64,000 nt of DNA from a phage (GCA_012813795.1 GCA_012813795.1_4087.1), one strand, 5' to 3'; counted from the stretch's first letter, positions 40,861-58,779 are shown. Program-made: numbers and translations. Notes: generated from the sequence alone by a model not told the origin.

Positions 40861-40950
40861 AGATACACCTATGCACCCTGTGGGCTAGTTTTTGTCTATG
40901 CGTATATAATAGCAAAGGGACTGACCGGAGTCAATCCCTTTTTTTATTCT
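40861..40950. repeat. conserved inter-gene boundary element, copy 1
   Basis: ~90-bp unit: GATACAC..GCACCC-N3-GGGC box, TATATAAT, then GGGACTGAC-cgga-GTCAATCCC hairpin and T-run; near-identical copies at 43931, 47245, 49700. Confidence 0.6.
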
Positions 40951-40956
40951 TTTTTG

Positions 40957-41157
40957 TTAGATGATCTTCCAATCTTCCACGATCATTGTAAGATACCGAA
41001 CCATCGATTCGAGTGATTCGAATTCACGATAATCTGTCGCCCCACCAGCGGTACAAGTACAACCGATTAAGCCATTTTGCAATTCCTTAATCTGTACATC
41101 GATAAGGTTAGCTTTAGCTTCTTTCAGTACTTCAACCAGTGCGATAGCGATAGACAT
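40957..41157 (-). CDS. hypothetical protein
   Basis: 66-aa minus ORF with promoter module upstream. Confidence 0.6.
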   Translation of the reverse strand: MSIAIALVEVLKEAKANLIDVQIKELQNGLIGCTCTAGGATDYREFESLESMVRYLTMIVEDWKII

Positions 41158-41246
41158 AATGTTTTACTCCAAACTATTGGCGGGAGAACTATTCCCCCGC
41201 TCTATGTAAAACATTATACACTATAGGATAGTACTGTCAAATAGTT

Positions 41247-41504
41247 TTATGAGATATCCTCGATATAGTCGGCCCATTTCATTTTTTCAGTACTGTCAAT
41301 GGCTACCGGATTATTTGGATCAAACCATTCACCATTACCGCAATACATCCCCACGGCAACGGTTTTATATCCATCCTGGGCCGTATTCCAGGCAAGGCCA
41401 CGATAGATACGGCCTTTAACTGGTTGCAGTACTGGTAACGTTTTATGGTCTTCTACGTAGGCCATAGCTTGAGGATTTACCCGATATTGTGTGAATTGTT
41501 CCAT
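41247..41504 (-). CDS. hypothetical protein (paralog of 41585..41851)
   Basis: 85 aa; shares V.P..G..Y....W.....Y....G.W.DP..P pattern with neighbour. Confidence 0.6.
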   Translation of the reverse strand: MEQFTQYRVNPQAMAYVEDHKTLPVLQPVKGRIYRGLAWNTAQDGYKTVAVGMYCGNGEWFDPNNPVAIDSTEKMKWADYIEDIS

Positions 41505-41584
41505 GATGTTTCCCCTTTTAATATTGGGGGAGTATTCCCCCTATGCAAAACATTATACACTATCAGTTAGTACTGTCAATACTA

Positions 41585-41851
41585 TCAATTAAATTTAGGA
41601 TGTATTTCAATGTAGTCACAATAAGGAAAATATTCAATATAACGCGTAGTGATTGGATGTAACGGATCGGACCATACACCGCTACCCTCATAGCGTGCTA
41701 GTGGGCCTTTTAAGTACTTTTGTTGTTTCCTTGACCAGTATATGGATTGATAGACTACACCAACGGCAGGGACAACGAGCGGGAGCATAGAGTGATCTAA
41801 TACAACGGATTGATAATTTTTATTATAGCGATATGTTGTTTTCTTTTTCAT
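41585..41851 (-). CDS. hypothetical protein (paralog of 41247..41504)
   Basis: 88-aa minus ORF. Confidence 0.6.
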   Translation of the reverse strand: MKKKTTYRYNKNYQSVVLDHSMLPLVVPAVGVVYQSIYWSRKQQKYLKGPLARYEGSGVWSDPLHPITTRYIEYFPYCDYIEIHPKFN

Positions 41852-41903
41852 TGTTAACCTATTATAGAAATTATTAAGGGGATATTATCATCCCCTTTTA
41901 TTG

Positions 41904-42128
41904 TTATACTAGATTATTTAATCCTCTTATGGTTGATGCTTTTTCTTCTTTCTCCCATTGACGGTAATACTTCCATGCTTCGTGATAGGTGGCGATCAGT
42001 TCATCTTTTTGATCCTGATTACATGCCAGTACTGAATCACGGAAAGCGGTGTTATAGATAGAATCGAATGATTTCTTTTCTGCCGCCAGGTTAGATACTT
42101 CCCGAATCAGTTCATCATGATTAGCCAT
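41904..42128 (-). CDS. hypothetical protein
   Basis: Track ORF trimmed to ATG at 42128 (MANHDELIREV...). Confidence 0.6.
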   Translation of the reverse strand: MANHDELIREVSNLAAEKKSFDSIYNTAFRDSVLACNQDQKDELIATYHEAWKYYRQWEKEEKASTIRGLNNLV

Positions 42129-42196
42129 CGTAGTACTCCTTATTAGTGGGGGAGGATATCTCCCCCTATGCAAAACATTATACTTTGTTTTACTTA

Positions 42197-42460
42197 CTAT
42201 GCAAGTACTTTTTTCATATAAACATTAAATTCTACACCGCCGTAACCTTCTACGATGATATGTTTTGCGTTATCACGCTTGCACATAGTGAAACCGTTGT
42301 TGATATGTTCTGCATTTTCCAGGGATACATCACCGATAGCGGCACATACGGCACTTATAACAGTATTCCGCAAAGTACTGGTATCGTTAGCGGTCATAGT
42401 AGTTTGCAGTACTACGTTGTCGTATACGTGTGCATTGATAGTGATTTCAATAGCGTTCAT
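42197..42460 (-). CDS. hypothetical protein
   Basis: Track ORF trimmed to ATG at 42460 (MNAIEITINAH...); discarded MFYIERGKWFPL is translated promoter/hairpin. Confidence 0.6.
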   Translation of the reverse strand: MNAIEITINAHVYDNVVLQTTMTANDTSTLRNTVISAVCAAIGDVSLENAEHINNGFTMCKRDNAKHIIVEGYGGVEFNVYMKKVLA

Positions 42461-42547
42461 GGTGTATCTCCTGGACTTGAGGGGAAACCATTTCCCCCTC
42501 TCGATATAAAACATTATACGTTGATCTAACTACAATGCAAGTACTTT

Positions 42548-42739
42548 TTAAATTTTATTTCCGATATAGTCCGGCCTATTCTTTTCGGTCATACGCTTTG
42601 CTAATGTTTGCATATGGCTTATCGCGTTTAAGGTGTCTTCCTCCAGGGATGAATCAACATAATCAGGATCATTCTTCACCTTACAATGATTATGATAGCG
42701 TAGTACTGCCAGTACTTTTTTAACTTCTTCAACTGTCAT
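42548..42739 (-). CDS. hypothetical protein
   Basis: 63 aa; ATGA start/stop overlap with the upstream gene (translational coupling). Confidence 0.55.
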   Translation of the reverse strand: MTVEEVKKVLAVLRYHNHCKVKNDPDYVDSSLEEDTLNAISHMQTLAKRMTEKNRPDYIGNKI

Positions 42740-43008
42740 AATAAGTATTCCACTTCGTTAGCTTTCAGGTTAGTATCAATCATCAGTGGATTTTTGTAGT
42801 TCACAAAACGATTAGTTTTCTCGATAGCGAATCCCATATAATCCAGCTTACTAACAGTACATTCATTCTTAAAAACTTCTTTCGCTGCATCGATGGCTGA
42901 TTGCATGGATAACCGACCATCTAAATTAATGTTTCCAAATGATCCACCAGCAGAAGTAGGATTACCGTTCATATCTTTAATGATCATAGTAGCGGAGTAG
43001 CTAGACAT
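42736..43008 (-). CDS. hypothetical protein
   Basis: 90-aa minus ORF with promoter module upstream. Confidence 0.6.
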   Translation of the reverse strand: MSSYSATMIIKDMNGNPTSAGGSFGNINLDGRLSMQSAIDAAKEVFKNECTVSKLDYMGFAIEKTNRFVNYKNPLMIDTNLKANEVEYLL

Positions 43009-43061
43009 AATTTTGTTTCCTTTTAGTATCGGGGAGAACTATTCTCCCCTTGATGTAAACT

Positions 43062-43089
43062 ATTATACAGTACTGATATACTTTGTCAA
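43062..43089 (-). promoter_or_regulatory. sigma70-like early promoter (module copy)
   Basis: Minus strand TTGACA-N16-TATAAT; 5'-UTR hairpin GGGGAGAA..TTCTCCCC; module duplicated ~exactly at 43504-43586. Confidence 0.6.
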
Positions 43090-43095
43090 ATACTT

Positions 43096-43503
43096 TTATT
43101 CGCCCATATAGATTAGATTATCATCGCCTACATAGGGATCGCAAACGTTGATTTCTTCGCAGTACTTAGTGAATACATCGTCATAGTGACCGATATCACG
43201 ATCCCAAAAGCCAGTGCCGTGACCTTCGCGAGTAAGAAAGAGATCATGACCTGCATGATTATAAGTATAATCAGGATTATGGTGTTTTTGTACTGTTTCC
43301 ATATCTTCACCATGTACAGCAAGGAAACGTGAACATGCAATCACTGCCGCTTGATGGGCTTGCTCTGATAATTCATAATCTTCCAGGTAATCGCCGTTCT
43401 CATTGTATACAGTACTGAATTGCATAGCTTCAATGTAACCAGCGACCATTGCAGCATGATTTTTATCGTTGGTGATGTTCCGAGCTTGATTAGTAGTAGT
43501 CAT
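43096..43503 (-). CDS. hypothetical protein
   Basis: 135-aa minus ORF. Confidence 0.6.
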   Translation of the reverse strand: MTTTNQARNITNDKNHAAMVAGYIEAMQFSTVYNENGDYLEDYELSEQAHQAAVIACSRFLAVHGEDMETVQKHHNPDYTYNHAGHDLFLTREGHGTGFWDRDIGHYDDVFTKYCEEINVCDPYVGDDNLIYMGE

Positions 43504-43555
43504 GTTTTTATTCCTTTTAGTATCGGGGAGAACTATTCTCCCCTTGATGTAAACT

Positions 43556-43583
43556 ATTATACAGTACTGATATACTTTGTCAA
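43556..43583 (-). promoter_or_regulatory. sigma70-like early promoter (module copy)
   Basis: Minus strand TTGACA-N16-TATAAT; duplicate of the 43062 module. Confidence 0.6.
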
Positions 43584-43586
43584 TAC

Positions 43587-43808
43587 TTAATTACGTTTAA
43601 AATGATATGTGCCTTTATCATCCTGAACGCCCCATACTGATTTACCATCAACACCAGTGAAGCCGGATTGTAATTCAATATGGAAACCATTATTATCAAC
43701 TACAAAAACTTTTTTATTTTCATCCCGATAACATTGATATTCTGAATCAACATTAAAGGCCGCATCATTCAGAAGATTGGAAGCGTAAATGCAAGTCATT
43801 GTAGTCAT
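43587..43808 (-). CDS. hypothetical protein
   Basis: Track ORF trimmed to ATG at 43808 (MTTMTCIYASN...) with AAGGA SD. Confidence 0.6.
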   Translation of the reverse strand: MTTMTCIYASNLLNDAAFNVDSEYQCYRDENKKVFVVDNNGFHIELQSGFTGVDGKSVWGVQDDKGTYHFKRN

Positions 43809-43930
43809 GATTTTATTCCTTATTGCCAGGGAGAACCGTTTCCCCCTCTCGATATAAAACATTATACTTGATTCTAAGTACAATGCAAGTACTTTTTAAA
43901 AATAGTTTTCAGTACTCAATCATTATACAA

Positions 43931-44020
43931 TAGATACACTCCCGCACCCTATGGGTCAGTGAGCTATCTCTCAATGAATATATAATAGCAAAGGGACTGA
44001 CCGGAGTCAATCCCTTTTTT
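43931..44020. repeat. conserved inter-gene boundary element, copy 2
   Basis: Same unit as 40861..40950, directly 3' of the kinase-like gene. Confidence 0.6.
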
Positions 44021-44028
44021 AATCTTTT

Positions 44029-44613
44029 TTATCGTGTTATAGTTACGGCTTTTACGTCGCGTTGTTTATAGTACTGATTCCAAATATTGCGGGTTAAACC
44101 GTAATCAAGTACTTTAATCAGGCCATTGCGATCCTCGCCTATGTTCTGCTTTCTGATATCTCTTATCGTTAGTGTTGATAAGGTATCATCAACGTGTTGT
44201 AGTGCATCAGCGAAATGGTGTTGGCGTTCAATAGTGTTACGTTTAACATTGTACTTTAATTCATTGCAAGCGTTAACGTGCTTTACACTGCCTTTGCTTG
44301 CAGTACTCAAACGATCCATAACAATAAACATATTATCAGGATCGCTTAAATGCATATGCACTTTCGCAAAGAACTGTTTCAACCGAGGACGGTCATAATC
44401 TAAAAAATTCCATACCTTACATTCTGTTTCATTTTGTTCTACGCCAGCATCACAATTCGCGACCTTAATCACTAACCGATCATTTAAAGCGAATACGATA
44501 CGGGATGATCCGGCCCCGATGATTTCAAGTCCAGCCAACCGACAAACTGTAAGGATCTCTTTGTTAGTTTCCATTTCTGCCAGTGCCCGGATGAATTTAG
44601 TATAGTTACGCAT
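44029..44613 (-). CDS. protein kinase-like protein (T7 gp0.7-type Ser/Thr kinase fold suspected)
   Basis: 194 aa; glycine-rich loop IGAGSSRIVF, conserved lysine context LVIKVA, catalytic-loop-like DIRKQNIG, DFG-like VLDYG; AAGGAG SD. Confidence 0.55.
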   Translation of the reverse strand: MRNYTKFIRALAEMETNKEILTVCRLAGLEIIGAGSSRIVFALNDRLVIKVANCDAGVEQNETECKVWNFLDYDRPRLKQFFAKVHMHLSDPDNMFIVMDRLSTASKGSVKHVNACNELKYNVKRNTIERQHHFADALQHVDDTLSTLTIRDIRKQNIGEDRNGLIKVLDYGLTRNIWNQYYKQRDVKAVTITR

Positions 44614-44664
44614 TGCATTTACTCCTTAAGATAGCAGGGAGGTATTCCCTGCCTTGATGTGACT

Positions 44665-44693
44665 ATTATATGTTAGTACTAATTAGATTGCAA
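44665..44693 (-). promoter_or_regulatory. sigma70-like promoter of the kinase-like gene
   Basis: Minus strand TTGCAA-N17-TATAAT. Confidence 0.55.
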
Positions 44694-44910
44694 CAGTTTT
44701 ATTTGCAATTACTGAATGAATTGCGGTTTTACCTGATTTAGTACTGAATACATTAGCACGACCATTTTCAATAGTGATGCGGTATTCACCTTTACTATCA
44801 ATGAGGTTGATAAATTCAGGAGTACTAAACCGAGTTACTTTAAAAGTCAGTACATTGAGCAGGTCCACCAGCGTAGTAGTTTCTTTGATGCGTTCTAAGA
44901 TATTAATCAT
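44683..44910 (-). CDS. hypothetical protein
   Basis: 75-aa minus ORF. Confidence 0.55.
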   Translation of the reverse strand: MINILERIKETTTLVDLLNVLTFKVTRFSTPEFINLIDSKGEYRITIENGRANVFSTKSGKTAIHSVIANKTVAI

Positions 44911-44975
44911 TTTGTTTCTCCAGTTATTCCGTGTTGGTATAGATACATAGTACTAAAACATTTGAGTACTGTCAA

Positions 44976-45194
44976 TTAGATAATTGCATATTTCTTTAAA
45001 GATAATGCGTCTTGTGTTGGCTGATACTCCACGCCGTTACCGTTATCTACTTTAACTAATAAACCTTTGTCAATTAGTTTTTTAATAGTCCGTTGGCCTT
45101 GTTGAAAATTGGTAAAGTGTGAATCATTACGAAAGGTGTAACCATGTTGGATAGCTACATCAATAGTTTTCTTTTCGACTTTAGATAAATTCAT
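44976..45194 (-). CDS. hypothetical protein, possible small DNA-binding protein
   Basis: 72 aa; basic, ...RTIKKLIDKGLLVKV... reminiscent of a winged-helix recognition helix (weak). Confidence 0.45.
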   Translation of the reverse strand: MNLSKVEKKTIDVAIQHGYTFRNDSHFTNFQQGQRTIKKLIDKGLLVKVDNGNGVEYQPTQDALSLKKYAII

Positions 45195-45248
45195 TTTGTT
45201 ACTCCCCGTGTTGGTATGTACATATAGTACTAAAACATTTGAGTACTG

Positions 45249-45503
45249 TCAACGTGATATTAGTTTTATTTTCTTATTATATTGTTGGTGTTCATAGAGG
45301 TTCATCTTTCCGGTATTCTCGATTACTATCCTGTTGTTAGTGTCCACATCGATTACACGCAGTTTTCCGTTGCTTAACTTCCTCGGTAATAGATTACCAT
45401 TAATAAACTCATTAGCGAGCGTGACGGCCTTTGTGATGATTCTCTGAGGGGCTTTATAGTGTACCCGCAAGATATTATCTTTAGATAGTTGTACCTTAAT
45501 CAT
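45249..45503 (-). CDS. hypothetical protein
   Basis: 84-aa minus ORF. Confidence 0.55.
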   Translation of the reverse strand: MIKVQLSKDNILRVHYKAPQRIITKAVTLANEFINGNLLPRKLSNGKLRVIDVDTNNRIVIENTGKMNLYEHQQYNKKIKLISR

Positions 45504-45516
45504 TTTAGTTTATCCT

Positions 45517-45543
45517 ATAAAAAAGGCGGGAACTGATCCCGCC
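45517..45543 (-). terminator. rho-independent terminator
   Basis: GGCGGGA-actga-TCCCGCC hairpin followed on the minus strand by UUUUUUAU; downstream of 45566..45970. Confidence 0.65.
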
Positions 45544-45565
45544 GTGTTGTTAGTACTGCAAGTTA

Positions 45566-45970
45566 TTAGATAACCTGGCGGCGTTTACTGAATACTGTTA
45601 CACGATTACCCTTACGATCATGTCGGATCTCTTTCTGGTTGCGAACCAGTTCACTTGGACGCTTGAGGTTTGCCAGGTGATCCGCGTGAGTCCAAGCGGT
45701 ATGGTTTGCCTGTACTTTGATATCAGAACCAGCGATAAACTCATCTTGTGCGTCAAGTATTGCCGCCAGCATATCCGCTCGTTTTAGTTCTGCTGCTGTC
45801 AGTACTGGTTCAGGTGAATTCACAATATCAGAGATTTCTTTGAACTGTACGGCCCAGCGTTGGCCTTTCGGTGCTGTCGTTCCCATGTCTTTAAATGCTG
45901 CTCCTTCCTCGCGTGCAACAATACGGGCAGCTTCACGGGTAGCGTAGAATTTAGTAATCATGGTATACAT
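45566..45970 (-). CDS. hypothetical protein (paralog of 56881..57147)
   Basis: 134 aa; shares FxTREqAR..A...GA.FKDMG and IKHDRKGNRVTV with 56881..57147. Confidence 0.6.
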   Translation of the reverse strand: MYTMITKFYATREAARIVAREEGAAFKDMGTTAPKGQRWAVQFKEISDIVNSPEPVLTAAELKRADMLAAILDAQDEFIAGSDIKVQANHTAWTHADHLANLKRPSELVRNQKEIRHDRKGNRVTVFSKRRQVI

Positions 45971-46056
45971 CCTATTAGTTAAGTTAGTACTACAAGTTAG
46001 AGTCTATTATAAAGTACTATCTGGGCAATGTCAAATAGTACTTTAAATGGATTCTA

Positions 46057-46380
46057 TTACATGTCTTTCTTACGTTTTACATCGTTGTAGCGAACTGTTA
46101 TTTCTTTGTTGATCTCTTTTTCTATTTGATGAATAACTTTTTCTTTCGGGTTGAAACCTATAACGGTTTCTTTAATGATCTCCAAGCCTGTGTATTCGCC
46201 TTGTGTGCCGTAACCGTAAGTAAAGGTTTCATGTCCTAAATCCTCCCAGCGATCACCAATCAAAGCAGACACGTAGCAAGAGTGGTAAGTATTGCCGTGT
46301 GAATCAGTCCACCGATTAACATTAATGTCAAAGGAAGTAATAATTTTCAGTTCTACTTTCTGGGTGAGGATCATAGCCAT
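46057..46380 (-). CDS. hypothetical protein (paralog of 51661..51984)
   Basis: Track ORF trimmed to internal Met (MAMILTQKVEL); shares RWTDSxGNTYHSC.VS...FTYGY...NVKRKKD with 51661..51984. Confidence 0.6.
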   Translation of the reverse strand: MAMILTQKVELKIITSFDINVNRWTDSHGNTYHSCYVSALIGDRWEDLGHETFTYGYGTQGEYTGLEIIKETVIGFNPKEKVIHQIEKEINKEITVRYNDVKRKKDM

Positions 46381-46468
46381 TTTTATTTCTCTCTCTTTGT
46401 TAGGAGGGGAACCGTTTCCCCTCACTTGATGTAAACTATTATACAGTACTAAGATACTTTGTCAATAC

Positions 46469-46651
46469 TTATTTTTTGGAAAGTTTACGCATTAATTCTA
46501 CGCTTTCTTGTGAACGTTTTGCTACCTGGCAATCTGCATGGGCAGTAAACATTTTTGTATAGTCTGACGCTTTGCCACCGAACCGAGCGGCACGTTCACG
46601 GGCACTTGGAACTAATACGATTTCTTTCTTACAGATAGTGCACTTAGCCAT
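46469..46651 (-). CDS. small Cys/His-containing protein
   Basis: Track ORF trimmed to MAKCTICKKEIV...; CxxC...HxxC spacing suggests possible Zn binding; the upstream ~90-bp promoter module is identical to that of 46057..46380. Confidence 0.5.
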   Translation of the reverse strand: MAKCTICKKEIVLVPSARERAARFGGKASDYTKMFTAHADCQVAKRSQESVELMRKLSKK

Positions 46652-46739
46652 TTTTATTTCTCTCTCTTTGTTAGGAGGGGAACCGTTTCCCCTCACTTGA
46701 TGTAAACTATTATACAGTACTAAGATACTTTGTCAATAC

Positions 46740-47015
46740 TTAAGTATTGTAAATGTCGTGAATAGTGATAAAGTTTTTACGACCGTAAACCTGTAAATCA
46801 GTATCAATGTAGTGCTTATCAAGTACATCCTCGACGCTTAACGCGGTGTCGTGAATATCTTCGTAGAATTGAGGATCTACAATCTTGCTTAAGTCATCCG
46901 GCGTTAACTTATCGTTAAGCCATTGAACCGCCTGGATATCTGCATCACGTTTCCAGTCTTGCAGGTTAGTAGTAAGTACTTGTTCGATTTCGTTAGCTGT
47001 CAGTAGAATCCGCAT
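46740..47015 (-). CDS. hypothetical protein
   Basis: 91-aa minus ORF. Confidence 0.6.
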   Translation of the reverse strand: MRILLTANEIEQVLTTNLQDWKRDADIQAVQWLNDKLTPDDLSKIVDPQFYEDIHDTALSVEDVLDKHYIDTDLQVYGRKNFITIHDIYNT

Positions 47016-47244
47016 TTTATGTTTCCTTCTCAGTGGTTGATGTAAGTATTATACTCGTTTACTTTCTATTGTCAAACTATTTTATCAGGGGAGTTTTTCG
47101 TGTGCCTTACTCCTGGGCTACTTAACGGGGTTACTTGTTTCATTCCCCGTCCTGATGTAAAACATTATACTTGATTCTAAGTACAATGCAAGTACTTTTT
47201 TATAATAGTTTTCAGTACTAGATAATACGTCCACCAGCATATAA

Positions 47245-47335
47245 TAGATACATTTATGCACCCTGTGGGCTGATTTGTTTCTATGCGTATATAATAGCAA
47301 AGGGACTGACCGGAGTCAATCCCTTTTTCAATTAT
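47245..47335. repeat. conserved inter-gene boundary element, copy 3
   Basis: Same unit as 40861..40950. Confidence 0.6.
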
Positions 47336-47337
47336 TT

Positions 47338-47487
47338 TTAAACTTCTTTTGGGTTGCGATATGTGATAGCGTTAGGGTACATTTTCTTTAAGTTATTCCA
47401 TGCCTGGTTAAGACTATAACCGCTGGATCTTACTAGTTGGTGCATACCTTGCCCCAAAAATGTAACTTCGAATAAGTATTCTTTCAT
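47338..47487 (-). CDS. small protein (49 aa), not in ORF track
   Basis: Hand-translated MKEYLFEVTFLGQGMHQLVRSSGYSLNQAWNNLKKMYPNAITYRNPKEV; GAGGTG SD; ATGA overlap with the upstream gene. Confidence 0.45.
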   Translation of the reverse strand: MKEYLFEVTFLGQGMHQLVRSSGYSLNQAWNNLKKMYPNAITYRNPKEV

Positions 47488-47657
47488 GCTTGCACCTCGC
47501 GATCTGCTTTGCCTTTACGCCAGGCCGTTGCTAATTGTTCGCGTTGCCATACATCCAGCGATACGTAAAGTTTTGCGGTATCACCTTTCGGATATTCGCC
47601 AGTAGTACCCATCCGATAAAACAGATCTTTCAGTACTGTCAATTCTACCTGGATCAT
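47484..47657 (-). CDS. small protein (57 aa), not in ORF track
   Basis: Hand-translated MIQVELTVLKDLFYRMGTTGEYPKGDTAKLYVSLDVWQREQLATAWRKGKADREVQA; AAGGA SD; promoter module upstream. Confidence 0.45.
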   Translation of the reverse strand: MIQVELTVLKDLFYRMGTTGEYPKGDTAKLYVSLDVWQREQLATAWRKGKADREVQA

Positions 47658-47744
47658 GTTACTTTCCTTTTTGTTAGGAGGGGAACTATTCCCCTCTCTA
47701 TGTAAAACATTATACTTGATTCTAAGTACTACACAAGTACTTTT

Positions 47745-48422: not shown

Positions 48423-48428
48423 TATAAT

Positions 48429-51984: not shown

Positions 51985-52075
51985 TTTAGTATTCCTTAAA
52001 TTAATATGCGTTGTCTTGATAAAATCTATTATGCCAGTACTATCAAACTATGTCAATAGTACTGTGATAATATTT

Positions 52076-52288
52076 TTACTTACTTTCTTTAGCTGCTTTA
52101 TGTGCTTCCACTGCCATAACCACATCAGCACGAACAAAGTTAGCAACCGTATCAGTGTAATATTTGATTGCATCGTCAACTTCTGCGAACGTCCGATACA
52201 TACCACACCAAGATACTTTATAACCTGCTTTCACTTGTTCCAGCTTAACCAGTGATTTGTTTACTTTGATTTTAGTAATGATAGCCAT
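52076..52288 (-). CDS. hypothetical protein
   Basis: 70-aa minus ORF. Confidence 0.55.
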   Translation of the reverse strand: MAIITKIKVNKSLVKLEQVKAGYKVSWCGMYRTFAEVDDAIKYYTDTVANFVRADVVMAVEAHKAAKESK

Positions 52289-52370
52289 TTTTTGTTTCCT
52301 CTTAGTTGTCTTGATAAAATCTATTATGCCAGTACTATCAAACTATGTCAATAGTACTGTGATAATATTT

Positions 52371-52514
52371 TTACTTACTTTTTGCTTTCTTTGATGCTTC
52401 AACCTGGTCAGCCCACTCTTTACCCCATACTTGAGCATTATAGTGATACTGACAAAGAGCAACGCCCCGCTTTAAACCAGTAATAGATTTTTTACCACAT
52501 TGACAAGTTTTCAT
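52371..52514 (-). CDS. small Cys-containing protein (47 aa), not in ORF track
   Basis: Hand-translated MKTCQCGKKSITGLKRGVALCQYHYNAQVWGKEWADQVEASKKAKSK; GAGGAA SD; promoter module upstream. Confidence 0.45.
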   Translation of the reverse strand: MKTCQCGKKSITGLKRGVALCQYHYNAQVWGKEWADQVEASKKAKSK

Positions 52515-52600
52515 TTTTCGTTTCCTCTTAGTGGGGAGAATCATTTCTCCCCTTGATGTAATGTATTATACTTTATCCGATTTACTTTGCAAGTACTTTT

Positions 52601-52828
52601 TTAATTTAATTCATCTAGGCAAAGGATACGATCTACACCTAAATCAGTTAAGCTAATAGACGGCACTTGATAGGTTTCAATGTATGCTACATCGGCCCAC
52701 TGACCGAACTCACCTGCCGCCCAGTTATACATTGCAAAATGTAATTCCGCACCTTTCTTATTAGTAATTACAGCAACAGTAGAAGAATTGCCAGTAGTAC
52801 CAGTTACGCGAGTGATTACGATAGCCAT
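52601..52828 (-). CDS. hypothetical protein
   Basis: 75-aa minus ORF. Confidence 0.55.
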   Translation of the reverse strand: MAIVITRVTGTTGNSSTVAVITNKKGAELHFAMYNWAAGEFGQWADVAYIETYQVPSISLTDLGVDRILCLDELN

Positions 52829-52898
52829 TGTTTTGATTCCTATTCAGTAGTTGATGTATGTATTATGTCAGTACTTAAAACTATTGTCAAACTATTTT

Positions 52899-53051
52899 TT
52901 AAAGTTTATCAATGATTGATGCCGTTTCATTGATAGTCTTGCCGTGTTTTGCACACGCGATAACTGCTTTAAATTCCTTTGATGACCAATCTTTTTTCCT
53001 GCATACTGACATTACTTGTAAAGTGAAACAATCCAGTTCATAAGTATTCAT
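52899..53051 (-). CDS. small protein (50 aa), not in ORF track
   Basis: Hand-translated MNTYELDCFTLQVMSVCRKKDWSSKEFKAVIACAKHGKTINETASIIDKL; GAGGA SD; promoter TTGCAC-N16-TATAAT. Confidence 0.45.
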   Translation of the reverse strand: MNTYELDCFTLQVMSVCRKKDWSSKEFKAVIACAKHGKTINETASIIDKL

Positions 53052-53220
53052 CTTTATATCCTCAGTTAGTTAAGGTGTCTCGCCTTGATGTAATTAATTA
53101 TACGCTAATCTCTTAATCGTGCAAGTACTTTTTATTAGTTTTTATAAAATACTTTTAACGCTCTCAATCGCATTCTAACGGCCTTAACGCCACCAGCTAG
53201 GGCGATGTATCACATAAACG

Positions 53221-53254
53221 AAAAAAGCCCGTAGAATTGATTCTACGAGCTTTT
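53221..53254. terminator. bidirectional rho-independent terminator
   Basis: GCCCGTAGA..TCTACGAGC hairpin flanked by A6 and T4; 3' of the lipoprotein gene. Confidence 0.55.
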
Positions 53255-53270
53255 AAGCTGGTTGATTGTA

Positions 53271-53678
53271 TTACTTACAGTTATAGACTATGATCCCGAC
53301 CGTCCCGTGTCCAATGACTTCAACGTTATACACTAACTTGCCATTTACACGCTCGCGAGCATAAAAAACGCGTTCATTCTCGGCATCGCGATACGCTGAT
53401 AAAAATTTACGGTTTGGATACGCTTTCAGTACTGGCGACTCAGTGAAAAAGTCACCGATAACTACACTAAAATGATCCCCGTGTTCTGTTAATGGTATAC
53501 TACGCGGATCAGTAAATTGCGGACGGTTATCAATAACAAAATATGGATTCACTGTACAAATCTTATCGCCCATCTCTGAATAAGTTGGCTTAGGATCATT
53601 AGCCTGGATGGATGATTTAGGGGCCGTACATCCCACCGCCAACAGTACACAACTAATAACCGCAATTTTTTTAAACAT
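53271..53678 (-). CDS. lipoprotein (candidate superinfection-exclusion or receptor-blocking factor)
   Basis: 135 aa; signal peptide MFKKIAVISCVLLAVG|C with lipobox LLAVGC. Confidence 0.65.
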   Translation of the reverse strand: MFKKIAVISCVLLAVGCTAPKSSIQANDPKPTYSEMGDKICTVNPYFVIDNRPQFTDPRSIPLTEHGDHFSVVIGDFFTESPVLKAYPNRKFLSAYRDAENERVFYARERVNGKLVYNVEVIGHGTVGIIVYNCK

Positions 53679-53742
53679 AATGTTTACTCCTATAAAATTG
53701 TATTTAAAAGAAAATCCCCTAGCAATCAGGGGATTCGTTTGA

Positions 53743-54225
53743 TTATGCTACATCTTTACGGTGAGCTTCGATCCATTCCTCGCGAGTCATACCGCTGGCG
53801 TTAATCGCGTCCAGTACTACGGCAATGCAGTTACCGCGTACTGGTACAGTGTATTCCTCGCCATTATCCAGTACTACCGTGACACGTTCTTGAATCCATT
53901 TTTTAGCTTTTACTTCTGGCTTGTCTTCCCCGTATTTCGCTGCCAGGGCTTTACGGGCCATTTCGGTAACTACTTCCAGATCAAGCCCAGCGACGGCGGC
54001 GTTAATATCTTCAATCGTTTTCTGCAATTCTGCTTCGCGTGCTGCCTTCTCTGCTTCAATTGCCGCCGCTTTATTAGCTTGCAGTTCTTTCGCTTCGCTG
54101 TACGCAATGTTAAAATTGTTGCGTACTGCTTTCATGGTATCGCTATCCAGTTCAGCCAGGATCTCTGCCGCTACATTAGTTTCATTTGCTACCAGTGCTT
54201 TGATGAATGATTTTACGTTAGCCAT
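53743..54225 (-). CDS. hypothetical Ala/Glu-rich coiled-coil protein
   Basis: Track ORF begins at a TTG; ATG at 54225 (MANVKSFIKAL...) has GAGGAA SD; central AAAIEAEKAAREAELQK heptad-like region. Confidence 0.6.
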   Translation of the reverse strand: MANVKSFIKALVANETNVAAEILAELDSDTMKAVRNNFNIAYSEAKELQANKAAAIEAEKAAREAELQKTIEDINAAVAGLDLEVVTEMARKALAAKYGEDKPEVKAKKWIQERVTVVLDNGEEYTVPVRGNCIAVVLDAINASGMTREEWIEAHRKDVA

Positions 54226-54424
54226 TATGTAATTCCTCAATTAAAGTTTAGTTTACGTTAGATAGTGTATCAAAGTTTTCTCGACGTGTCCAGTTTTTCG
54301 TTCGACTTACTGGCGGTCTACTTAGTGCTCCCCGTCTTGATGTAATACATTCTACGCCTTTTTGTGGTAATGTCAACTACTTTTTTAAAACTATTTTCAA
54401 AGTATTCCAGTACTACGATACTAC

Positions 54425-54451
54425 AAAAACAAAAAAGCCCACCAGGTGGGC
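54425..54451 (-). terminator. rho-independent terminator
   Basis: GCCCACC-a-GGTGGGC hairpin followed on the minus strand by UUUUUUGUUUUUG; 3' of 54459..54689. Confidence 0.65.
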
Positions 54452-54458
54452 TATGTAC

Positions 54459-54689
54459 TTAATCAGTAAGTAAAATATTAAACACTTTGCCATTTAACGT
54501 TATTGGTGTACTGCTACCAGGCTTGAGATCAGTTAGTACACCTGCAATAGCTTTTTCATTGGCGACCTTTCCAGTGTCCAATAGTACTACAGTACTGATA
54601 AGATTAACGCTCGTTTCAATATCATAATGCACGGCGTTAAGGAGTTGTGTAGTACTTCCAGCGTTAAGTAAAACTATTCGCTTAGTCAT
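54459..54689 (-). CDS. hypothetical protein
   Basis: 76-aa minus ORF. Confidence 0.55.
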   Translation of the reverse strand: MTKRIVLLNAGSTTQLLNAVHYDIETSVNLISTVVLLDTGKVANEKAIAGVLTDLKPGSSTPITLNGKVFNILLTD

Positions 54690-54767
54690 GGTATTACCCC
54701 TTATACCAGGGGAACCGTTCCCCCTATGTAAAACATTATACGCGTTTAAAAACTATTGTATAGTACT

Positions 54768-55004
54768 TTATGATTTTTTATAAAACATTTCAGCAGTGAT
54801 ATTTTTACCCGTTGGTTGTACTTTATCCAGAATTTTTTGATGTCCAGGGCGACCAAATGAATAAGATCCGTAAACCGTAAACCAGTAGTTACCCTCAGTG
54901 TTTACATGTACAGCACAATAGGGAACGCCCCGCGATTCATCACTAGTAAAGTGTGCTACCGTTCCCGTTACATTCGAAGACGTTGATTTGATTTGTTCGA
55001 CCAT
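54768..55004 (-). CDS. hypothetical protein (paralog of 56154..56387)
   Basis: 78 aa; shares GVPYCAVHVNT.G.YW.TVYG.YSF.RP.H.KIL with 56154..56387. Confidence 0.6.
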   Translation of the reverse strand: MVEQIKSTSSNVTGTVAHFTSDESRGVPYCAVHVNTEGNYWFTVYGSYSFGRPGHQKILDKVQPTGKNITAEMFYKKS

Positions 55005-55112
55005 TTTCTTATTCCTTAGTTACCAGGGGAACCGCTCCCCCTATGCAAAACATTATACGCGTTTAAAAACTAATAGCAAGTATTTTAATAAAAAGTATTT
55101 GGAAAATAATTG

Positions 55113-55255
55113 TTGACAAGTGCATCCAGTACTGGCATAATTACTACATCAAGACGAAACAGTCACTAACCCACCGGGTGCCGAGATCCGTCTATTAAAT
55201 GATTCAGTACTGAAAAAGTAACGGGGAGTTATTATCTCCCCGCGTTGTTATTTTG
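55113..55255 (+). ncRNA. candidate plus-strand small RNA (box-containing)
   Basis: Only plus-strand unit with promoter-like TTGACA-N17-CATAAT (55113-55141); no ORF; contains conserved CCCACCGGGTGC box; ends at GGGGAG..CTCCCC hairpin (55223-55241). Confidence 0.35.
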
Positions 55256-55469
55256 TAAGGTATAAACAGAAGTCACCTTTATTTGCTACGCCGCCAGTGT
55301 AACGCGATGAATAGTTAGTAACGTCCTGGACTTCTGCTATTACCAGTGTATCATCATTCAATTCGTCGCAGAAGCAAACGGCTGGATCTTTTACGCCGAT
55401 ATTGTCGGCATGTTCCCGCATAGATTTAACCAGTGCTTCAAGTTGGGAAAGGGTAGTAATGTTAGCCAT
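55248..55469 (-). CDS. hypothetical protein
   Basis: Track ORF trimmed to MANITTLSQLE... Confidence 0.55.
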   Translation of the reverse strand: MANITTLSQLEALVKSMREHADNIGVKDPAVCFCDELNDDTLVIAEVQDVTNYSSRYTGGVANKGDFCLYLTK

Positions 55470-55555
55470 TGTATTTTCCTCATTACCAGGGAGAACCATT
55501 TCTCCCCTTGATGTAAACTATTATACAGTACTAAAAACTAATTGCAAGTACTTTT

Positions 55556-55759
55556 TTAATTTAATTGCTTTAACACATAATCATAAACACCACGCACATC
55601 ATTGATCATCGCCTCACGGTTAGCAGGTAACGCAGAAGGATCGCCACTATCCCAGGCATTGATAAAACTCCCCAAATCATGATAGATTTTATTTTGTAAG
55701 CCGATCAACTGTAATTCTTTTTCTTCAAGCTCTTTGATACGGTCGATTAAATCACTCAT
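55556..55759 (-). CDS. hypothetical protein
   Basis: 67 aa; SD GAGGATTATCTA shared with the upstream gene. Confidence 0.55.
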   Translation of the reverse strand: MSDLIDRIKELEEKELQLIGLQNKIYHDLGSFINAWDSGDPSALPANREAMINDVRGVYDYVLKQLN

Positions 55760-55776
55760 TAGATAATCCTCAGTAC

Positions 55777-56064
55777 TTAATTGTAAGATCCGCAGCGGTT
55801 GCAGTAGTTCCCGTCTTCCTCGTCATCGTCAACGAATTGACCGACGAAATGATCTACTTTCTCTTTGAGGCTTTTATAATCCTCTTCTACTTCCTTTAAA
55901 CGTTTCTGGTAGTATTCCAGGGCTTGCACATACGCCGCCTCAGCAGTTTTCTCCCGCATAGCTAAATTCATGCCGCGTGTTTCATCATAAAGCCAATAAC
56001 CATCGGTGCACTGGCTGATAGAAAATGATTTGGTTAACACTTTATAGTCAATTACTTTGCTCAT
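55777..56064 (-). CDS. hypothetical protein with C-terminal Cys pair
   Basis: 95 aa; acidic stretch then ...YCNRCGSYN. Confidence 0.55.
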   Translation of the reverse strand: MSKVIDYKVLTKSFSISQCTDGYWLYDETRGMNLAMREKTAEAAYVQALEYYQKRLKEVEEDYKSLKEKVDHFVGQFVDDDEEDGNYCNRCGSYN

Positions 56065-56153
56065 TAGATAATCCTCTGTAAATGCAGGGGAACCATTTCC
56101 CCCGCCTCGATATAAAGTATTATACTCGTTTAAACTTAGTATGCAAGTACTTT

Positions 56154-56387
56154 TTAGTGCTTAGTAAAATATTTTTCTGCGGTGATATCCTTTCCGGTAG
56201 GCTTCACTACTTCCAGGATCTTACTATGTGCCGGACGAGCAAACGAATACCCCCCGTATACAGTTAACCAATAGTCACCGTCAGTGTTTACGTGTACAGC
56301 ACAATAGGGTACACCTTTATCAGTATCAGCGATGGAATGTACTTTCGTTCCGGTCCGGCTTGTAGTCGTTTGAATTTGTTCGATCAT
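56154..56387 (-). CDS. hypothetical protein (paralog of 54768..55004)
   Basis: 77-aa minus ORF. Confidence 0.6.
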   Translation of the reverse strand: MIEQIQTTTSRTGTKVHSIADTDKGVPYCAVHVNTDGDYWLTVYGGYSFARPAHSKILEVVKPTGKDITAEKYFTKH

Positions 56388-56444
56388 GATGCTTACTCCT
56401 GGTTATAGGCGGGAACCACTCCCGCCATTGATTCAGTACTGAAA

Positions 56445-56675
56445 TTACATTCCAACCATTGCCGCACGAATTGCAGTAGTGCTATACTTAAAGCCGTCCG
56501 GCGTTGACTGACCGCGTAAAGTATCCATCATTAGCCGGGCGGCGGCATCGCGGTTATTTGTCTCATTGATGCAATCCAGGGCGTGACGATACAACCAGCT
56601 ATCATTGTTAATCCAAAGGCTTACATTCCAATGAGTTTTGTTTTTGTGACCTAAGAACATTTTTGATTTAGCCAT
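56445..56675 (-). CDS. hypothetical protein (paralog of 57230..57469)
   Basis: 76 aa; shares GHKNKT.WNVSLWINND..LYR and PDGFKYSTTAIRAAMVGM with 57230..57469. Confidence 0.6.
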   Translation of the reverse strand: MAKSKMFLGHKNKTHWNVSLWINNDSWLYRHALDCINETNNRDAAARLMMDTLRGQSTPDGFKYSTTAIRAAMVGM

Positions 56676-56880
56676 TTTGAAAATCCTCGTTTGATTTGAG
56701 CGGGGAACTATTCCCCGTCCTGATGTAAAACATTATACGCCTTTAAACATAGTTTGCAAGTACTTTTTAAAAATAGTTTTAATCACTTTCCTATAGATAC
56801 ACTCCCGCACCCTATGGGCTATCGCCTTGTATCCGGCTTGTAAGTATTATCTCACTAAGCCGGATAATGGTCAAGTACTT

Positions 56881-57147
56881 TTATTCAAGTACTGCAATCT
56901 TTTTAGTACGGTACACAGTAACACGGTTGCCCTTGCGGTCGTGCTTTATTTCTACCACTCGACGCGATACACTATCAGGACTTTTTAACGCCGATAACCA
57001 GTACTGTAACGATCTGGCGGTGCTACGCTTTACAATGACCCAACGTTCACCCCTGGCTGATTGTACGCCCATATCTTTAAACGTTGCACCGTCAACCTTT
57101 GCCGCTTGCCGAGCTTGTTCACGCGTTTCAAAGTATATAATATTCAT
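56881..57147 (-). CDS. hypothetical protein (paralog of 45566..45970)
   Basis: Track ORF trimmed to MNIIYFETREQARQ... Confidence 0.6.
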   Translation of the reverse strand: MNIIYFETREQARQAAKVDGATFKDMGVQSARGERWVIVKRSTARSLQYWLSALKSPDSVSRRVVEIKHDRKGNRVTVYRTKKIAVLE

Positions 57148-57229
57148 GCTGATACCCCATCGTTGATGTATGAATAAAATCCTATTATAAAGTACTATCA
57201 CCGTGCAATAGTACTTTAAATCTATTCTC

Positions 57230-57469
57230 TTACATTCCAACCATCGCGGCACGGATCGCCGTAGTGCTATACTTGAATCCGTCTGGAGTTTTATCTTGTC
57301 CAGTTTGCTCTAAAAATAGCATCATATGACGGGCCGCATCATTACGATTAGTATTAGCGTCGATAAATTCTTTCGCCAGACGATACAATGACTCATCGTT
57401 ATTAATCCAAAGGCTTACATTCCACTGAGTTTTGTTTTTGTGACCGTTGAAAGTTTTAGTAGTAGCCAT
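57230..57469 (-). CDS. hypothetical protein (paralog of 56445..56675)
   Basis: 79-aa minus ORF. Confidence 0.6.
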   Translation of the reverse strand: MATTKTFNGHKNKTQWNVSLWINNDESLYRLAKEFIDANTNRNDAARHMMLFLEQTGQDKTPDGFKYSTTAIRAAMVGM

Positions 57470-57554
57470 AATTAAAAATCCTCTTAATTATAGTGGGGAA
57501 CTATTCCCCACCTGATAGAAAGTATTATACGCCTTTAAACTTAGTTTGCAAGTA

Positions 57555-57788
57555 CTATTTTTTCAGTACTGGTAAACCTTTGATCTCACCTGGCTGTACT
57601 TCCTCAAAGGTCGCCGCCATCATACGGCTATCATCTTCCTTGCACTCTTCCATTGCATCACAAAAATGATTAATAACGTCCGGTGCAACGTCAACCACAT
57701 CAAACAAGCCAACCTCAGTGCAACGGCTTAAAGCGTTTAACAGGTCAGTCAGTGCAACGGATTGAGAAACAGTTAAGATAGTACTCAT
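57555..57788 (-). CDS. hypothetical protein
   Basis: 77-aa minus ORF. Confidence 0.55.
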   Translation of the reverse strand: MSTILTVSQSVALTDLLNALSRCTEVGLFDVVDVAPDVINHFCDAMEECKEDDSRMMAATFEEVQPGEIKGLPVLKK

Positions 57789-57882
57789 AAAATTAATCTC
57801 TTAATTATAGTGGGGAACTATTCCCCACCTGATAGAAAGTATTATACGCCTTTAAACTTAGTATGCAAGTACTTTTTAAAAC

Positions 57883-58245
57883 TTATTCGTAAATCTTGCC
57901 ACTGTCAGCCCATACCAGGAAACGCGGCATATTATCCCATGCATCTTGTTTCAAGTTTAAGCCGTGCAATACTTCTGTACTTTCCATCCCTGGTACTGGT
58001 TTACTATACACCGCAAACATTTCGCCCATGTACTGATACGCCATCGTTAAATCACTGGCGATCATCTTATGGATCATCGCATCAAGCATCACAGTAGCGG
58101 CGTATTGTTCACGCTTAAGCGGCAACATTGCAATCAATTCCCGATAAGCTGAAATATGAATCTTTACAGTCTCAGCCGGAAGATCTTTCATCTCTTCGCG
58201 AAAGTTAACCAGGTTAGCAATGATTTTAGTGATTTGAGTCGCCAT
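57883..58245 (-). CDS. hypothetical protein
   Basis: 120-aa minus ORF; last gene before the non-coding hub. Confidence 0.6.
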   Translation of the reverse strand: MATQITKIIANLVNFREEMKDLPAETVKIHISAYRELIAMLPLKREQYAATVMLDAMIHKMIASDLTMAYQYMGEMFAVYSKPVPGMESTEVLHGLNLKQDAWDNMPRFLVWADSGKIYE

Positions 58246-58564
58246 CGTTTTAATTCCTATTAAAGTGAGTTAGGAGCGTTTCCCCCGTCTCGATGTAAAA
58301 CATTATACGCCGTTAAACATAGTATGCAAATACTTTCTGCAAATACTTTTAAAATAGTTTTCTTTCTATATAGGAGTACTATCATTCAGTACTGAATCAA
58401 TCCAGGGAGTACAATTATTCAGTACTATACCCTCAAAACGTCCTCAGTCGCTTTCTAACGCATTAATACACCTAAGCTATACATTTGCACCACTCCCAAC
58501 AATCCAGGGCTTTACGGGCCGTTTAAACGCGTTAAATTATTTTCAATTATTTTGTTTTTAGCTA

Positions 58565-58592
58565 TTGACTCAGTACAGAAAAAGCGTATAAT
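58565..58592 (+). promoter_or_regulatory. plus-strand sigma70-like promoter in the non-coding hub
   Basis: TTGACT-N16-TATAAT; downstream non-coding sequence carries the conserved CCCCAGGGGGTGC box. Confidence 0.45.
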
Positions 58593-58779
58593 TACTACAT
58601 AGACGCGAGAAAGCGGATACCCCAGGGGGTGCGGAACTACGCCCAAAATTCAGTAAATTTAAAAAGGATACACTCCCGCACCCTAGCAGGTCAAAGCACT
58701 TTCTCAGTACTGAATCATAGTACCATAGTACGCCCCATGATAGCAAGCAAATTAATTAAAACTTTTTGCATCCAGGGTA

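Follow-up and report, generated by a model that had tools for sequence, protein, structure and literature searches.

A 64,000-nucleotide stretch of DNA from a phage (GCA_012813795.1_4087.1), hereafter called the window, contains between 40.8 and 58.9 kb a family of short non-coding units built around a box which reads GCACCC-N3-GGG on one strand. These units raise the question of the strand on which they are read, of the level, DNA or RNA, at which the box acts, and of the role which so many copies may have. Each unit is very probably a small non-coding transcription unit of the host RNA polymerase on the strand on which the box reads CCC-AYN-GGGUGC, with a sigma-70 promoter followed by a conserved 5' RNA. 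The window has about 90% identity over long stretches with the Asteriusvirus jumbo coliphages A4, WPEC5, 121Q, PBECO4 and slurp01, and its source is, judged by sequence, an Asteriusvirus-like (Rak2-like) jumbo coliphage. The Rak2-like group includes 121Q, PBECO4, RaK2, K64-1, GAP32, CBB and many therapy candidates; to our knowledge these phages have no RNA polymerase of their own and depend on that of the host. The module described here is the most strongly conserved non-coding sequence found in the terminal-repeat region.

Strand, promoters and structure of the units

The pattern GCACCC-N3-GGG occurs eight times in the window, compared with 0.02 expected: on the plus strand at 40873, 43944, 47258, 49712 and 56807, and on the minus strand at 55170, 58621 and 58836. 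All eight coordinates in the initial annotation were correct. Its longer pattern, GATACA...box, is exact in all five copies with plus-strand coordinates, the hairpin AAGGGACTGACCGGAGTCAATCCCTT is the same in copies 1-3, and copy 4 has two compensatory double changes (G-C to U-A and A-U to G-C) which keep the 12-bp stem. A covariance model (R1), built from 24 copies of relatives with the hairpins P1 and P2 described below and searched with filters off over the whole 64 kb, gave exactly nine matches, all between 40.8 and 58.9 kb and nothing else. Eight had E values of 1e-15 to 2e-4 and the ninth, at 58662-58702 (-), had E = 0.036. Scanning relatives with R1 gave 105 further matches, and the non-coding family is conserved outside this genome.

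For the analysis of promoters, instances were anchored on the box as CCC-N3-GGGTGC and collected from eight annotated relatives and IMG/VR loci, which gave 87 unique ones. In all 87 the box reads CCC-N3-GGGTGC downstream of a sigma-70 -10 hexamer, which ends 20-29 nt upstream of the box. A sigma-70 promoter matching at >=9/12 positions was present in 81 and at >=10/12 in 72, whereas 0.9% of random positions of the same regions reached 10/12. The dinucleotide CA is conserved exactly 7 nt after the -10, giving a predicted start of C(-1)A(+1). In the window, TTGACx-16/17-TAtaAT stands upstream of all eight full units, with an A-run before the hairpin.

Because of the promoter association and the position of CA in the 87 instances, the five main copies are minus-strand units. 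They had been read on the plus strand as box, TATATAAT and hairpin with T-run, which is the wrong strand, the genes and promoters both being on the minus strand; TATATAAT is the reverse complement of the -10 TATTAT(ATA). Since the unit is read from the minus-strand promoter, with the hairpin first, the box and GATACAC lie in the transcribed leader. A plus-strand reading of copies 1-5, with TATATAAT as the -10 of a hairpin RNA of about 35 nt, was rejected: no -35 is present, and other genera conserve the minus-strand TTGACT-17-TATTAT but not the plus-strand TATAAT. The relatives of the box that had been placed downstream of plus-strand promoters do follow strong ones (TTGACA-17-CATAAT, TTGACT-16-TATAAT and TTGCTT-16-TATAAT). 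The RNA module of the supposed partial copy at 56803 is complete (37.3 bits over the full model length); only the terminator hairpin is missing, and the promoter is a different one.

This terminator/promoter hairpin lies directly after the stop codon of the preceding minus-strand gene, and the -35 TTGACT is embedded in its stem, with a 17-nt spacer, in 4 of the 5 sense units of the window. It was called as a terminator at 40941-40914, 44017-43990, 47326-47299 and 49785-49758 (-) by a scan which also lists the separate terminator at 55222-55242 (+/-). The hairpin has a stem of 9-13 bp and a UUCG or UCCG loop, encloses TTGAC, and is present in 25 of 45 sense copies of relatives and in 0 of 22 antisense copies. 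Among 22 distinct versions TTGAC is constant and the outer stem varies (GGGA/UCCC, GUGG/CCAU, GGGG/CCCC, GUAC/GUAC, AGGA/UCCU), with 93.9% of cells paired and three pairs changing on both sides. Many of its pairs are G.U, which is valid in the sense RNA only, and the U-tract in the sense direction is interrupted (UUUGCUAUUAU) because it also serves as promoter spacer and -10. The initial annotation was right that a hairpin covaries, but that hairpin is the terminator/promoter hairpin, upstream of the transcribed module; it overlooked the module's own, much stronger covarying hairpin, P1. Small RNAs and a bidirectional terminator, which it offered as options, were sound candidates, and its overall interpretation is partly supported.

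A conserved AAATCTTTACAAA motif occurs directly upstream of the -35 in a subset of module promoters of several genera (locus L002 5290-5310, 8380-8400 and 12200-12225; L001 about 21960-21990; L003 about 3690-3705; L004 about 23200-23215) and may be an UP element or a regulator site.

The conserved 5' RNA is 50-60 nt long and consists of an A-rich stretch, usually in the loop of a hairpin, a linker of 4-5 nt, the box CCC-AYN-GGGUGC and a downstream segment, S3. The long class of copies has the hairpin P1 ahead of the box and the short class does not. The nine units of the window, with their R1 scores, are as follows.

40859-40941, minus strand: unit 1, sense, short class, 38.9 bits; terminator/promoter hairpin 40914-40941; -35 TTGACT 40929-40934; -10 TATTAT 40906-40911; predicted start A 40899; leader AUAGACAAAAACUAG without P1 stem; box 40873-40884; S3 GUAUCU 40861-40866
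43930-44017, minus strand: unit 2, sense, long class, 58.5 bits; terminator/promoter hairpin 43990-44017; -35 44005-44010; -10 43982-43987; predicted start A 43975; P1 UGAG-AGAUAG-CUCA; box 43944-43955; S3 43932-43937
47244-47326, minus strand: unit 3, sense, short class, 34.8 bits; terminator/promoter hairpin 47299-47326; -35 47314-47319; -10 47291-47296; predicted start A 47284; box 47258-47269; S3 47246-47251; Chi site just downstream at 47238
49698-49785, minus strand: unit 4, sense, long class, 60.3 bits; terminator/promoter hairpin 49758-49785 with two compensatory pair changes and TTGACT intact; -35 49773-49778; -10 49750-49755; predicted start A 49743; P1 UGAG-AGAUAG-CUCA; box 49712-49723; S3 49700-49705
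56793-56874, minus strand: unit 5, sense, the former partial copy, 37.3 bits; own promoter TTGACC 56869-56874 / GATAAT 56846-56851, no terminator hairpin; predicted start A 56839; P1 GCC-GGAUACAA-GGC; box 56807-56818; S3 56795-56800; breakpoints relative to phage vB_Ec-M-J at 56771 and 56872
55113-55250, plus strand: unit 6, antisense, solitary, 37.0 bits, predicted to yield a small RNA of about 100 nt; promoter TTGACA 55113-55118 / CATAAT 55136-55141; predicted start A 55148; P1 GAC-GAAACA-GUC; box 55170-55181; S3 CCGUCU 55188-55193; intrinsic bidirectional terminator 55222-55242
58565-58646, plus strand: unit 7, outward-pointing, about 1.3 kb from the inferred left genome end, 23.4 bits; promoter TTGACT 58565-58570 / TATAAT 58587-58592; predicted start A 58599; P1 CGC-GAGAAA-GCG; box CCCCAGGGGGUGC 58621-58632; S3 ACGCCC 58639-58644
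58780-58861, plus strand: unit 8, outward-pointing, 46.1 bits; promoter TTGCTT 58780-58785 / TATAAT 58802-58807; predicted start A 58814; P1 AGUC-GAGAAA-GACU; box 58836-58847; S3 ACGCCC 58854-58859
58662-58702, minus strand: unit 9, decayed convergent partner of unit 7, 15.8 bits, E = 0.036; degenerate box CUGCUAGGGUGC, the anti-box beginning 45 nt after the unit 7 box, which is the spacing of intact convergent pairs; P3 (see below) plus UUUU reads as a terminator-like site

P1, a stem of 3-5 bp ending 3-5 nt before the box, was found in 60 of 60 long-class copies, with 26 distinct stems and A-rich loops of 6-8 nt (AGAACAA, GAGAAA, GCGAAA, AGAUAA; GNGAAA). Its mean score in an independent scan was 5.1, compared with 2.19 +/- 0.25 for shuffled sequences. 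On the model alignment of the 105 further matches all four pairs change on both sides (150 cells) and 92.7% are paired, as against 20-53% in slid controls; this alignment is fitted to the structure and hence leans toward it, and the independent shuffle scan agrees. The short class, 22 of the 82 aligned copies, is without the P1 stem and retains a GAAAACAA-like sequence.

Ten core bases of the box are invariant in the 82 aligned copies, which were selected by exact box match. Among the 105 model matches, three of the ten core positions are constant, and each of the remaining seven differs in one to five copies. Two pairings of the box were considered. In P2 the CCC pairs with the GGG and the preceding base, always a purine, stands opposite U, with 99% of cells paired and a loop of 3 or 4 nt; one copy has a CCU/AGG double change which keeps the pairing. 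In P3 the GGGUG of the box pairs with YRYCY six nt downstream; 97.6-97.8% of cells are paired over the inner five pairs, compared with at most 67% in slid controls, and variation is limited to GU/GC and UA/UG. One GGA variant loses P2 and keeps P3. The two are mutually exclusive and about equal in predicted stability (means of -3.8 and -3.3 kcal/mol for P2 and P3, P3 being better in 50 of 82). Because GGGUGC does not vary, P2 and P3 cannot show true covariation; as modelled, both are consistent with being part of the structure.

The element probably acts at the RNA level, considering its orientation and distance to promoters, the RNA-type covariation of P1, the wobble-type variation and the variable loop length. 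For the box itself, action as an RNA hairpin is favoured over a fixed-spacing DNA site by the 3- or 4-nt loop, the purine-U opposition and the CCU/AGG copy. Three further structural or coding interpretations were discarded: a leader mini-ORF (open reading frame; AUGAAAACAAGCUAA, in some short-class copies), whose start codon and frame are not conserved; a helix joining the 5' end to S3 over a long range, which the minimum free energy fold of unit 6 shows and which is inconsistent across copies; and P3 with a U-run as a general attenuator, a U-run following S3 in few copies only.

Distribution and arrangement of the copies

In phage vB_Ec-M-J a region homologous to part of the window is annotated as a direct terminal repeat (DTR) of 21,525 bp, and in fEgEco12 a DTR of 20,993 bp was confirmed by PhageTerm and restriction mapping (PMC13070987). 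The corresponding feature of the window is given here as context.

about 38,980-59,930, no strand assigned: DTR of the window; approximate limits, placed through homology with the DTR annotated in vB_Ec-M-J

These limits agree with the base composition, in which G+C rises at 40 kb and the GC skew changes sign at 60 kb. The minus strand carries all plausible genes between 38 and 64 kb, and the DTR is rich in minus-strand early genes. It contains all nine units, >25 gene-proximal early promoters with hairpins in the 5' untranslated region (UTR), and eight co-oriented Chi sites.

The module is carried by 69 of 50,697 phage records, all of them Rak2-like (Asteriusvirus, Alcyoneusvirus, Mimasvirus, Eneladusvirus and the Munch group), and was present in all relatives examined, with about 190 instances over five Rak2-like lineages and 8-11 copies per repeat. 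The Rak2-like phages with the module share only a minority of genes. BLAST finds twice as many places in records with both DTR copies as in those with one (8 compared with 4; 6 compared with 3), which fits a location in the DTR only. The outward terminal copy (58621) is the best conserved, its promoter-to-box core being 92-94% identical across genera, with relatives in Salmonella phage Munch, Klebsiella phage fENko-Kae01, Erwinia phage Hallingskeid and Xanthomonas phage XbC2; its distance from the genome end is about 1.05 kb in the four with records that begin there.

No match to the module was found in 5,426 E. coli genomes, and mimicry of a host sequence was rejected on this basis. A covariance search of 38-64 kb with Rfam 15 at E <= 1 matched none of the units, so that known RNA families were set aside; it found just the unrelated CyaR-like locus described below. 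Homology to the DTR non-coding RNAs of phage PA5oct was likewise absent (best R1 match E = 0.56). A CRISPR-repeat mimic, ToxI, a CsrA GGA site, tRNA-like elements and small ribozymes do not fit the invariant positions or the Rfam result. The module is not described in the CBB, fEgEco12, Sharanji and PA5oct papers or elsewhere in the searchable literature; some GenBank records label the hairpins merely as terminators or stem-loops.

The copies occur in several arrangements. Sense copies come after a terminator and, 37-80 nt further downstream, give way to the ordinary early promoter which serves the next gene; the only two which run straight into a Shine-Dalgarno (SD) sequence and ATG, as a direct 5' UTR, are in relatives (L006 23662 and L021 12617). 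In each of the four lineages with solitary antisense copies at their loci (Asteriusvirus, Alcyoneusvirus, the unclassified SE_PL locus and Eneladusvirus), these copies lead into an intrinsic, bidirectional terminator 33-39 nt beyond the box, which predicts RNAs of about 100 nt. Convergent pairs have a distance from box to anti-box of exactly 45 nt in Asteriusvirus and Mimasvirus and of 56 or 63 nt elsewhere; they sit close to the genome end and, in CBB, close to the inner boundary of the DTR. Roughly one copy in three is antisense or outward-pointing; the antisense and the outward terminal ones are not followed by any gene.

Relatives of the Klebsiella, Salmonella and Serratia type carry Fur-box-like sequences in their terminal regions, e.g. 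GAGAATGATAATCATTTAC, which deviate from the 19-bp consensus at 2-4 positions (L002 3985-5381; L005 269-1645; L006 9154-9178, 10721-10739 and 15688-15706; L008 1014; L021 6091; L023 958-1304). Some lie in the gap between convergent module pairs (L006 15688, L008 1014, L021 6091, L023 1286). None occurs in the window, CBB or GAP32.

Possible roles of the leader RNA

The role to which we tentatively give preference is that of an abundant immediate-early RNA or leader, the box of which would dock a conserved factor. The RNA itself would be the product, and its synthesis would take place within seconds of infection, each genome having two repeats and each repeat roughly 9 copies. It would be a free RNA of about 60-110 nt where the copy is antisense, convergent or terminal, and the 5' leader of the next early mRNA where the copy is sense. 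The box would be the docking site of one conserved protein, of host or phage, the P2/P3 alternative would control access to it, and the outcome would be titration of the docked factor or marking of early transcripts. This role is favoured because terminated antisense copies and outward terminal copies have no gene to serve, because the copy number is high on the part of the genome which enters first and is duplicated, and because an invariant motif stands in variable surroundings. It also has a precedent: PA5oct, a distant relative, has two highly transcribed non-coding RNAs in its DTR (PMC7318152). PA5oct is likewise a jumbo myovirus, with a long terminal repeat in which these RNAs, ncRNA001 and ncRNA002, are encoded; they are single-copy and 236-451 nt long (PMC7318152). 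The module has no similarity to them in sequence or model.

As in CsrB/C, Qrr1-5 and LhrC1-5, there are paralogous small RNA genes with a short strict motif, their own promoters and some terminators. Unlike the module, those RNAs have known partners (CsrA, or Hfq and targets) and a lower copy number; the box is not the CsrA GGA motif, and many module copies lie within mRNA leaders. With regard to Hfq-type traits, ARN-like A-rich loops are present in nearly all copies and U-tailed terminators in the solitary antisense copies only.

Several observations weigh against a docking RNA. The searchable literature holds no transcript data for any Rak2-like phage, and a Pfam search of 20 DTR ORFs gave no candidate binding protein, the matches being DUF7249, a ParE-like domain and a weak kinase-like one only. 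A discrete small RNA is hard to reconcile with the sense copies, since these lack their own terminator and lead into the next promoter. Individual copies have been preserved in orthologous places in different genera, as would rather be expected of a local function in cis. There is no statistical covariation in P2 or P3, and the invariance of GGGUGC would suit DNA recognition equally well. Finally, S3-like ACG(Y)CCAAAAT occurs twice without a box in the terminal region.

It is conceivable, if rather doubtful, that the module is the RNA half of a so far undescribed early takeover system common to all Rak2-like jumbo phages, a two-state promoter-proximal RNA from about 20 gene copies on the DNA which enters first. 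Such a system could load a factor onto the host RNA polymerase, as a third phage antitermination signal beside nut and put, or titrate a host RNA-binding or defence protein.

A signal for control of elongation in cis is the main alternative, though an unlikely one. In this alternative the emerging module, alone or factor-bound, would make the polymerase resistant to terminators or pauses, as lambda nut, HK022 put or PR'-qut-tR' do; module transcripts would read through the terminator-rich early region, and antisense cassettes would give short RNAs until the factor appears. Lambda nutL and nutR, composed of boxA and boxB, and HK022 putL and putR are promoter-proximal antitermination RNAs. The HK022 put RNA is a nascent RNA of two stem-loops which binds RNA polymerase and suppresses termination without protein factors. 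The module resembles them as a short structured RNA past early promoters, multi-copy and lineage-specific, with a purine-rich-loop hairpin beside an invariant linear element. It always lies close to a promoter, its orientation is constant, and the box occupies +15 to +35. Its sense copies directly follow a terminator and precede stretches with further plain terminators, and the orthologous positions and the two direct 5' UTRs (L006 and L021) also suit this alternative.

Unlike nut and put, however, the copies face both ways, form convergent pairs and can meet a terminator at once. About a third, being antisense or outward, have nothing downstream to express, and read-through offers no rationale for convergent pairs at a fixed spacing of 45 nt. 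P1 is dispensable in a quarter of the copies (stem absent in 22/82). Of the lambda boxA consensus (C/U)GCUCUU(U)A, GCTCTT was found in 0/82 leaders, and a boxB-type 5-bp stem with a GNRA-like GARRA pentaloop also in 0/82, P1 having instead 3-5 bp and loops of 6-8 nt. No N-, Q- or NusG-like protein was found among the 20 DTR ORFs, nor any relevant Pfam match for an N-type arginine-rich antiterminator; one ORF without an assignment, at 52371-52544, encodes a basic, Cys-rich protein of 57 aa. The promoter-element-terminator cassettes do resemble lambda PR'-qut-tR' with its 6S RNA, in which a strong constitutive promoter and a conserved initial transcribed region give a short RNA by way of a terminator, about 100-200 nt downstream in lambda. 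Lambda, though, has one copy directed toward the late genes, whereas here there are 8-11 per repeat, with nothing coding past the antisense terminators.

Recognition at the DNA level is less probable still. The box would then be a duplex operator or roadblock past early promoters, or fold, within the transcription bubble, into a small hairpin of the non-template strand, as at ops/RfaH sites or in sigma-dependent pausing. Ten core bases without covariation across five lineages (invariant in the exact-box copies), the strict orientation and the placement in the early-elongation zone would suit it, as would the size of a CCC-N3/4-GGG hairpin, whose 9-10 nt would fit the bubble, and the recurrence of YRTCYA-like motifs in the terminal iteron region. 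Yet the distance of 20-29 nt from -10 to box has no helical phasing, the loop has 3 or 4 nt, and the CCU/AGG double change preserves pairing. The purine opposite U and the GU/GC and UA/UG alternations are a signature of RNA wobble, the adjacent P1 covaries as RNA, and the ops/RfaH site GGCGGTAGnnTG occurs in none of the leaders and on neither strand of the window.

The terminator/promoter composite belongs to the kind called PeSL (promoter-early stem-loop), and the leader module is undescribed in Rfam and the searchable literature. PeSL cassettes are known from the T4-like phages RB49/phi1, PST and nt-1, with a stem-loop between or over the promoter hexamers (PMC2839356, PMC4122927). Common to both are a strong sigma-70 promoter, an A/T-rich upstream region, a fused GC-rich stem-loop which terminates the upstream gene, and many intergenic repeats among small ORFan early genes; both may also offer homology for shuffling. 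PeSLs differ in ending in an SD and start codon without a conserved transcribed RNA motif. The units drive a non-coding leader (P1 and box), usually followed by a second, gene-proximal promoter and otherwise by a terminator or a convergent partner, and a third of the copies lack the stem-loop and are antisense or convergent.

It is improbable that the units are PeSL-type cassettes only, which would terminate the upstream gene, restart transcription, insulate neighbouring units and offer homology for shuffling, with a leader that serves no more than promoter escape and 5' stability. In favour of this, the hairpin overlaps the promoter exactly as in PeSLs (PMC2839356), copies of families D15 and D17 are 82-100% identical over 100-200 nt and one indel relative to vB_Ec-M-J has breakpoints 50 nt either side of unit 5. 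Against it, constraint on the 12-nt box over about 190 instances far exceeds the needs of homology tracts or promoter escape, the >25 ordinary early promoters of the DTR are without a box-type module, and antisense and terminal copies neither terminate nor restart any gene. The recombination hot spot suggested in the initial annotation is weakly supported, since one of about 13 breakpoint regions relative to vB_Ec-M-J flanks a unit and about 12 lie away from them.

As a candidate new RNA family the module gives precise predictions of start sites, RNA lengths and pairing mutants, and it bears on how Rak2-like phages organise immediate-early expression from repeats of about 21 kb. The identity of a partner could reveal a new phage control of host transcription or the neutralisation of a host factor, and would also explain the non-coding transcription units in long terminal repeats which were seen but left unexplained in PA5oct.

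Other features of the terminal repeat

The >25 gene-proximal early promoter copies lie at 40300-59600 (-) (e.g. 43842-43897, 47145-47200 and 52546-52601) and precede almost every small early gene. These PeSL-like cassettes combine AAAAAGTACTTGCA/TTGACA-16-TATAAT with a start conserved as ACATCRAG, then a 5'-UTR hairpin with a GC clamp (GGGGAGAAccatTTCTCCCC) and an SD. In the set of DTR proteins encoded at 45249-45503 (-) and 44029-44613 (-), one has a ParE-like toxin domain (E = 2e-10) and a second a weak protein-kinase-like match below the Pfam cut-offs, annotated as Ser/Thr kinase in relatives.

Eight Chi sites (GCTGGTGG) are located at 40826, 41049, 42951, 44872, 47238, 48139, 48408 and 53197, all on the minus strand, which is the gene-sense strand, and all inside the DTR, whereas about 0.2 would be expected on each strand of the entire window. 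Several module promoters of relatives have Chi or its complement within the spacer, in every case in the orientation of the genes. This pattern suggests RecBCD protection of a repeat entered from one genome end.

AGTACT, a palindrome often extended to cAGTACTg, has 258 sites in the window compared with about 20 expected, inside and outside the DTR (e.g. 55204-55209 and 58574-58579). It is found beside -35 hexamers (AAAAAGTACTTGCA), within promoter spacers (CCAGTACTGGCATAAT), on the 3' side of modules (UUCAGUACUGAA) and upstream of start codons at 60-64 kb, and may be a factor-binding site, a modification site or a promoter element.

A candidate CyaR/RyeE-like small RNA at 53221-53303 (-) matches RF00112 with 37.7 bits, compared with a gathering threshold of 47 (local E = 1e-5). 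It has its own strong terminator (53223-53254) and a diverged seed, AACCAGCUU for AACCACCUCCU.

The non-coding region about 0.7-1 kb from the genome end contains irregularly arrayed TAGCC(G/A)TCTA / TCCAGAC iterons (window 58950-59260; L001 24540-24740; L007 20300-20450) and four ACG(Y)CCAAAAT motifs (58639, 58854, 59162 and 59188), two of which are the S3 segments of modules. These elements may be signals for packaging, replication or end processing. A third strong outward promoter, without a box, is present at 58905-58990 (+) (TTGACA-17-GATAAT) and is followed by the hairpin AGAU-UCAGAAAA-AUCU and a GGGGAAACCAUCCCC hairpin. Just outside the DTR, at 60304-60363 and 60006-60123, are perfect 9-bp tandem repeats (GTACTGATT x 6.7) and several 10-bp arrays (ACTCTAGTAC, AATGATTATA); these repeats sit at 60 kb, where the GC skew changes sign.

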